A DNA stretch of 33,902 nucleotides from a virus (taxonomy: Duplodnaviria; Heunggongvirae; Uroviricota; Caudoviricetes), in IMG/VR virus record IMGVR_UViG_2778261509_000015; one strand, given 5' to 3'. The translations under genes were made by a program, and so were the position numbers. Positions 18,014 through 18,088 of the stretch are shown here, in pieces (the stretch's first letter is position 1; each line of letters begins with the position of its first letter). The notes beneath the pieces are model-generated. The model was given only the letters and a program-made list of their open reading frames with translations. It did no database searches and was not told the origin of the DNA.

Positions 18014-18088
18014 TGGAGCGGGTAGCGGGAATCGAACCCGCATCATCAGCTTGGAAGGCTGAGGTAATAGCCATTATACGATACCCGC
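18014..18088 (-). tRNA. tRNA-Gly (anticodon UCC), glyT-like
   Basis: Minus-strand GCGGGTATCGTATAATGGCTATTACCTCAGCCTTCCAAGCTGATGATGCGGGTTCGATTCCCGCTACCCGCTCCA: 7-bp acceptor stem, anticodon stem TCAGC/GCTGA with loop CTTCCAA, GGTTCGATTCC T-arm, encoded CCA. Confidence 0.85.

Follow-up and report, generated by a model that had tools for sequence, protein, structure and literature searches.

Why would a lambdoid prophage of Escherichia coli carry, just ahead of its lysis genes, a near copy of a glycine tRNA gene that its host already possesses? The window (the whole stretch of DNA analysed here, 33,902 nucleotides) shares 100% identity with the E. coli RM10740 chromosome, where RefSeq annotation has a lambdoid prophage beside thrW/proA, and the gene in question lies inside that prophage.

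Identity of the tRNA gene

ARAGORN predicts two tRNA genes in the window, a tRNA-Gly with anticodon UCC (tcc, position 34) at 18014-18088 and a tRNA-Thr(CGU) at 32459-32534, both on the minus strand. The glycine gene matches the full Rfam tRNA model RF00005 (model positions 1-71) with 65.6 bits (gathering score 29, E = 2.8e-12), on par with the 64.9 bits that glyT of E. coli K-12 obtains under the same model. The original prediction of a tRNA-Gly(UCC) cloverleaf at 18014-18088 is thereby upheld by ARAGORN and Rfam together, with exact coordinates, an accepted structure and the anticodon that it had named; the strand, which it had left unstated, is minus.

Taking the K-12 gene, together with species-wide identity bands, as the host reference, we observe that 73 of 75 nucleotides are identical in alignment. 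The only differences, C6->U and G67->A, fall on the two sides of one acceptor-stem pair, with pair 6:67 being U:A in the prophage gene and C:G in the host, and the earlier reading of a glyT-like body with a compensated acceptor-stem change is correct. The anticodon arm, D arm, T arm and discriminator U73 are those of host glyT, the cloverleaf is complete, and the 3' CCA is encoded. The identity elements of E. coli GlyRS are G1:C72, C2:G71, G3:C70, U73, C35 and C36, and a reading of the sequence (GCGGGUA...UACCCGC-U-CCA with anticodon UCC) finds all of them in the prophage tRNA. Apart from pair 6:67, the two genes differ in their setting, host glyT belonging to the thrU-tyrU-glyT-thrT-tufB operon and the window gene to a prophage late region. 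We consider the identification of a phage-borne, glyT-like tRNA-Gly(UCC) secure, and the gene is already a known one, being annotated in RefSeq (tRNA-Gly, F1748_RS01655) and recurrent among lambdoid prophages.

Position of the gene within the prophage

The prophage is bounded by int/thrW, and within it the tRNA-Gly gene occupies the Q-to-holin slot on the late strand. Minus is the late-gene strand, on which Q, the AraC-family gene, the holins, the endolysin, the terminase and the structural genes are all encoded. Read in this direction, the early and replication genes are followed by Q, a porin gene (on the plus strand), a terminator, the AraC-family gene, tRNA-Gly, three terminator-like hairpins and the lysis genes, past which come an LPS-phosphatase gene (plus strand) and then the terminase, head and tail genes. 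As annotated in RefSeq, a quuD-like Q antiterminator of 127 aa (21108..21491, -) lies ~3.0 kb upstream of tRNA-Gly, and the gene of an AraC-family regulator (18506..19357, -; WP_236265347.1), a moron, lies upstream of it on the same strand. The first holin gene (17163..17555, -) begins a phiP27-type lysis cassette of two holins and an M15 endolysin (16518-17555, -), which at the DNA level is ~92% identical to its phiP27 counterpart. The RefSeq gene order thus confirms the proposed location on the late-gene strand, between the AraC regulator and the lysis cassette.

At the prophage end, thrW, the tRNA-Thr(CGU) gene near proA, directly abuts the RefSeq-annotated integrase gene (31325-32443, +) and constitutes the integration site. 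Three morons flank the lysis cassette, namely an OmpC-like porin gene (19823-20920, +) that runs antisense to the late operon, the AraC-family gene, and the phosphatase gene (15871-16446, +), whose product is an LPS core heptose(II)-phosphate phosphatase. The annotated GTG start of the AraC coding sequence lies ~12 nt past the T run of the preceding terminator (19355-19398, -) with no visible Shine-Dalgarno sequence, and it is doubtful where the gene truly starts or how it is expressed. Past the M15 endolysin (15429-16517) the annotation shows no spanin (Rz/Rz1-type) gene, and the opposite-strand phosphatase gene fills the space up to the small terminase gene. In the ash/DUF4222 region of the prophage early operon, adjoining matches to C4 antisense RNA (25708-25795, -; 82.3 bits) and to the isrK Hfq-binding RNA (25820-25896, -; 64.2 bits) both exceed the Rfam gathering score, the pair being an antirepressor-control module of the P1/P7 or Gifsy type.

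Distribution and alleles

Sequences resembling glyT occur at 6,574 places in 5,421 of 5,426 complete E. coli genomes, which corresponds to ~1,150 copies beyond the native gene, and the exact U6:A67 allele is the best match in 269 of the 5,426 genomes. When one genome per species is scanned for exact matches (185,579 genomes), the allele is found only in Escherichia ruysiae, in a prophage Thr-Gly array, which rules out that it is the native glyT of another species. Among phages, SerU-LTIIb (KU052038) has two tRNA-Gly genes, the first of which is identical to the window gene at 75 of 75 positions, and a glyT-like tRNA-Gly is annotated in vB_EcoS-683R6 (683R6 below), JLK-2012, phi467 (Stx2f), 606R7, 689R5 and PhiR47_1, the tRNA pair of phi467 being mentioned in its genome paper (PMC5189129). 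Two phage alleles are found, one identical to the host gene (phi467, PhiR47_1) and one with U6:A67 (the window, SerU-LTIIb, 683R6 and JLK-2012), and the substitutions in other tRNA-Gly copies are mostly compatible with pairing. The window gene is therefore no rarity, the same allele being present in a published phage as well as in those 269 complete genomes.

Stx-converting and phiP27-type phages carry ileZ-argN-argO in the same slot, downstream of Q (or of a methyltransferase gene) and upstream of the toxin or lysis genes; phiP27 itself has ileZ and argO there. These tRNAs differ from the window tRNA-Gly in amino acid and anticodon and resemble it in that a supply for host-rare codons has been proposed (a hypothesis; PMC10264068). 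In agreement with the earlier expectation that ileZ, argN and argO are the usual tRNAs at this position, 3,057 of the 5,426 E. coli genomes contain ileZ-like tRNAs, which with 7,341 places in all are about six times as frequent as the extra glyT-like copies. tRNA-Gly is a recurrent minority occupant of the slot.

tRNA arrays in related phages and origin of the gene

Related phages and prophages have short tRNA arrays between Q (or a methyltransferase gene) and the holin gene, and tRNA-Gly invariably comes last in them. The usual array is Thr(UGU)-Gly(UCC), and Asn(GUU)-Thr-Gly, Met/Ile(CAU)-Lys(UUU)-Thr(UGU)-Gly and Arg(UCU)-Gly also occur. Such arrays are borne by the phages 683R6, JLK-2012, phi467, PhiR47_1 and SerU-LTIIb, which have the same gene in the same Q-holin slot as the window prophage, and by many prophages, including those at loci L006, L008, L012 and L022. 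In five loci, the tRNA-Thr of the array does not differ from host thrU (100% identity). Furthermore, the Thr-Gly pair aligns with the host segment thrU-tyrU-glyT minus tyrU and spacer (~200 nt), with a 3-nt spacer remaining, and on these alignments its likeliest origin is a host operon fragment that was captured and then trimmed. An ancestral phage would have taken up a thrU-tyrU-glyT segment and lost tyrU, and the resulting Thr(UGU)-Gly(UCC) module would then have spread among prophages.

The window prophage departs from this pattern in that its tRNA-Gly is solitary, without a tRNA-Thr, and lies ~3 kb from Q, compared with 90-350 nt in the Thr-Gly array phages. Homology to other phages begins within ~5 nt of the 5' end of tRNA-Gly. 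Just upstream of the AraC start, the terminator scan finds a terminator-like hairpin, AAACCCGCCGTCGAGCGGGTTT, followed by a T run (19370..19398, -), which gives matches of 27-40 nt to the pre-array terminators of 683R6, L012 and PhiR47_1, well above shuffles. Because the terminator upstream of the AraC gene is homologous to those that precede the arrays, the AraC gene and ~420 nt were probably inserted between this terminator and tRNA-Gly; such an AraC-bearing insertion may have displaced the upstream tRNA and left the Gly gene alone.

Directly upstream of tRNA-Gly, at the exact position where related phages have an intact tRNA-Thr(UGU), the segment 18089..18124 (-) matches in register what would be the decayed 3' half of such a tRNA (a thrU-like T arm and the 3' strand of the acceptor stem) and a TAT spacer. 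Relative to tRNA-Gly, 21 of its 36 positions are identical in register to the end of thrU plus spacer, against a register-match background of 9.0 +/- 2.6, with 3 of 67,732 background windows reaching 21, and a permissive local alignment of the segment to the thrU end is not significant. The segment is probably a decayed remnant of tRNA-Thr, the similarity being suggestive only.

A separate case of change within an array is seen in SerU-LTIIb (L002), where the gene at 8181-8256 (-), annotated as tRNA-Arg(UCU), has a thrU body in which G35->C turns the anticodon UGU into UCU. It has four further changes, U16->C and U20->C (both also found in the array's own tRNA-Thr), G24->A and A31->G, and looks like an anticodon-switched duplicate of the array tRNA-Thr.

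A conserved hairpin in the tRNA trailer

With 7 and with 15 copies, RNAalifold folds the segment 17810..17893 (-), ~120 nt downstream of tRNA-Gly, into a long imperfect hairpin of 84 nt and 34 pairs. About nine of these pairs are G.U, so that the hairpin can form only in RNA of the late strand. Across the 15 copies, 98.6% of cells are paired, compared with 35-58% in slid registers, and 13 of the 34 pairs vary, nearly always staying paired and with one A-U<->G-C double change. The observed pairing values are attained by 6-8 of 500 shuffles, the covariation support is weak, and the fold of the trailer has z = -3.9.

The hairpin has 335 genomic copies; 286 of the 5,426 E. coli genomes contain it, as do two phage records, and loci L002, L005, L011-L013 and L017-L024 are among those with a copy. 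At every locus inspected it lies downstream of tRNA-Gly, whatever the type of Q or holin, and the window, SerU-LTIIb and 683R6 have both the hairpin and the U6:A67 allele in common. Rfam families match the trailer below threshold only, as in the case of GcvB (18.6 bits, gathering score 42), and RNase III may cut at the hairpin, or the hairpin may itself be a trailer-derived small RNA. We also considered, and rejected, that the trailer encodes a protein, the frame being 11 codons long in the window and the other copies having non-synonymous changes and indels. At three other loci, PGAP annotates "hypothetical proteins" of 96-106 aa that start from an ATGGTG of the hairpin (L017:703-1014, L018:703-993 and L019:703-1023); these are probably false gene calls over structured RNA.

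Transcription signals around the tRNA

A consensus scan detects a sigma-70-like match, TTGATA-16-TAGTAT, at 18203..18230 (-), ~107 nt upstream of tRNA-Gly and with a very AT-rich stretch just 5' of it, which makes a weak candidate for a promoter of tRNA-Gly itself. The same kind of scan shows no excess of promoter-like sites across the region. A promoter common to the arrays was rejected, since comparison of the 430 nt upstream of tRNA-Gly with the upstream regions of other arrays gave scores within those of shuffles, and a promoter scan between Q and the porin gene returned no convincing match for a late promoter.

Downstream of tRNA-Gly, the terminator scan predicts three intrinsic-terminator-like hairpins before the holin gene, all followed by a T run. 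The first, AACCGCCGTACCAGGCGGTT (17722..17751, -), is kept in related prophages, the second lies at 17682..17709 (-), and the third, GGGCCGCTGGTGGCCC (17571..17596, -), is directly before the holin ribosome-binding site and is kept in SerU-LTIIb and in the prophage locus L012. Transcripts begun upstream would be expected to stop before the holin gene unless made by Q-modified RNA polymerase, and both a short transcription unit and the late transcript could yield tRNA-Gly. The presence of three conserved terminators between tRNA-Gly and the holin gene fits this two-part transcription model. With respect to the "late leader" in which the gene had been placed, the late strand is right, but a leader position is weakly supported at best, as the gene lies ~3.0 kb from Q, behind the antisense porin gene, a terminator and the AraC gene; we infer its co-transcription from the late promoter.

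Codon demand and the function of the gene

In E. coli, glyT is single-copy and encodes tRNA-Gly2, the sole decoder of GGA, so that an extra copy should raise or sustain the pool of this tRNA. Judging from the sequence, we think it fairly probable that the window gene is a functional extra tRNA-Gly2 gene, carried by a lambdoid prophage in the Q-to-lysis tRNA slot. It would be transcribed on the late strand, either by read-through of Q-modified polymerase or from the promoter-like site 107 nt upstream; after processing by host enzymes and aminoacylation by the host's GlyRS, the product would decode GGA and GGG and add to the tRNA-Gly2 pool during phage protein synthesis. Codon compensation of this kind is the standard hypothesis for phage tRNAs (PMC10264068).

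Codon usage supports this explanation in part. Comparing 41 prophage CDS (9,319 codons) with 48 host CDS (17,368 codons), we observe 13.9 GGA per 1000 codons in the prophage and 6.6 in the host (odds ratio 2.1, p = 4e-9), and 15.8 and 9.4 GGG, respectively (1.7x enriched), with GGA and GGG together making up 41% of the Gly codons in the prophage and 20.5% in the host sample. The suggestion that the tRNA may match GGA/GGG demand of the phage is thus partly supported. However, lambda, which has no tRNAs, uses 13.0 GGA and 14.7 GGG per 1000 codons (39.8% of Gly codons), and phiP27, which has no tRNA-Gly, uses 15.9 and 16.6 (43.7%), compared with 12.9 and 17.5 (41.3%) in PhiR47_1, which has the gene. 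In addition, AGG and AGA are more strongly enriched in the prophage relative to the host (8.1x and 4.5x), alongside CGG (2.6x), AUA (2.2x) and ACA (2.1x), and ARAGORN finds no tRNA for AGG, AGA or AUA in the window prophage. Since lambda and phiP27 share the GGA/GGG usage without having tRNA-Gly, codon usage does not predict carriage: the demand for tRNA-Gly2 is about doubled in all phages compared, and carriage of the gene is not explained by it. Two array partners, Lys(UUU) and Asn(GUU), read no rare codons, which suggests that more than codon supply lies behind these arrays. Nor do the tape measure and capsid genes, named as Gly-rich in the original prediction, stand out as places of GGA demand, as their 9.8 and 7.4 GGA per 1000 codons are both below the prophage mean.

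A more specific use of the tRNA was considered and rejected. The lambda-type G/GT tail-chaperone frameshift takes place at G GGA AAG, whose GGA codon tRNA-Gly(UCC) decodes. Here the G/T junction has GGAAAAG (6230-6236, -), without a GGA codon, and GGGAAAG occurs six times in the window, no more often than chance would give, and never at the junction. The junction (6224-6240, -) reads CCG GAA AAG TCC TGA, and the -1 slip site is likely GGAAAAG (A AAG) instead of lambda's G GGA AAG.

Other explanations for carriage

The same molecular action, more tRNA-Gly2, could also have been selected for a different reason. An extra tRNA-Gly(UCC) might act as a spare that buffers the phage against tRNA-inactivating immunity of the host or of a rival prophage by topping up a single-copy essential tRNA, gene dosage being the sole route. 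We regard this as unlikely. As far as the published accounts used here extend, T5 tRNA-Lys rescues from PARIS, phage 21 tRNA-Thr from P2 OLD, and SP15/T5 tRNA-Tyr from Retron-Eco7, and these are, like the window tRNA-Gly, phage copies of host tRNA species with a single decoder. According to PMC12445682, killing by P2 OLD results from its cleavage of the host's tRNA-Thr(UGU), its main target, and of other tRNAs, the features of its substrates being paired CNG motifs at 28-30 and 40-42 plus A37, and the lambdoid phage 21 is rescued from it by its own tRNA-Thr(UGU). PARIS AriB targets Lys(UUU), Thr(UGU) and Asn(GUU) (PMC12409363), whereas toxSAS FaRel2 picks tRNA-Gly and tRNA-Thr via the acceptor pairs 1:72, 2:71, 4:69 and 5:68 (PMC11559606). 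The array partners of tRNA-Gly, Lys(UUU), Thr(UGU) and Asn(GUU), are therefore the very targets of PARIS AriB, with Thr(UGU) also the main target of OLD; phage 21 provides a precedent against OLD (PMC12445682), and the window tRNA-Gly itself has C28-A29-G30, C40-U41-G42 and A37 of the OLD type (motif as given there). Being the same as host glyT at the OLD and FaRel2 sites, it would be a plausible substrate and not an escape variant.

Several observations speak against such a role. The main text of PMC12445682 does not list Gly among the tRNAs that OLD cleaves, Retron-Eco7 leaves E. coli tRNA-Gly uncleaved, and in the literature on OLD (main text), PARIS and Retron-Eco7 we found no defence system that targets E. 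coli tRNA-Gly(UCC). Whereas the rescue tRNAs have substitutions at or near the cleavage site, the window tRNA-Gly shows no escape changes, its anticodon arm being the host's, the four FaRel2 determinants being kept and only pair 6:67 being different. Moreover, the array tRNA-Thr is in most copies indistinguishable (100% identity) from the sensitive host thrU, and in the window prophage the partner tRNAs are gone. U6:A67 is not supported as an escape change in its own right, as it lies outside the FaRel2 determinants and well away from where OLD and AriB cut, and some phages have the host-identical gene. A wider version, in which tRNA-Gly(UCC) and its 84-nt hairpin trailer would form a counter-defence or regulatory module instead of a codon-supply gene, with a hypothetical E. 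coli immunity depleting tRNA-Gly(UCC) and the hairpin acting as a functional RNA, seems to us quite improbable. If a counter-defence role were true, tRNA-Gly(UCC) would become a candidate target of a so far unknown tRNA-directed immunity in E. coli.

The gene might instead be a hitchhiking relic, intact and probably expressed and yet of no measurable benefit, that persists as a small and harmless part of a mobile module (tRNA, hairpin, terminators and lysis cassette) swapped among lambdoid prophages. Its beginnings as a captured host operon fragment, the decay of the neighbouring tRNA in the same prophage, the mosaic junction marked by the start of homology so close to its 5' end, the failure of codon usage to predict carriage and the circulation of both the host-identical and the U6:A67 alleles would all agree with this. 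Nevertheless, we find it distinctly unlikely, because tRNA-Gly has stayed intact, with a compensated and non-disruptive change, while its upstream neighbour decayed, and because the exact allele recurs in 269 genomes across differing Q and holin modules; this pattern of retention is more easily explained by purifying selection. The reading as a non-functional pseudo-tRNA, or as a tRNA attachment site left behind by another integrative element, can draw on the frequent use of tRNA genes as integration sites, this prophage itself being at thrW, but is extremely improbable. The gene is full length with CCA, its Rfam score equals that of host glyT, its position is the standard late-region tRNA slot, and there is no adjoining integrase or duplicated tRNA 3' end, the only integrase being 13 kb off, beside thrW.

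Implications

The locus counters simple codon-matching arguments, given that lambdoid phages with and without tRNA-Gly share the same GGA/GGG usage. Its value is otherwise modest and lies in showing cleanly how a temperate phage can come by a tRNA, in that a fragment of a host operon appears to have been trimmed, spread among prophages and, in part, lost again.
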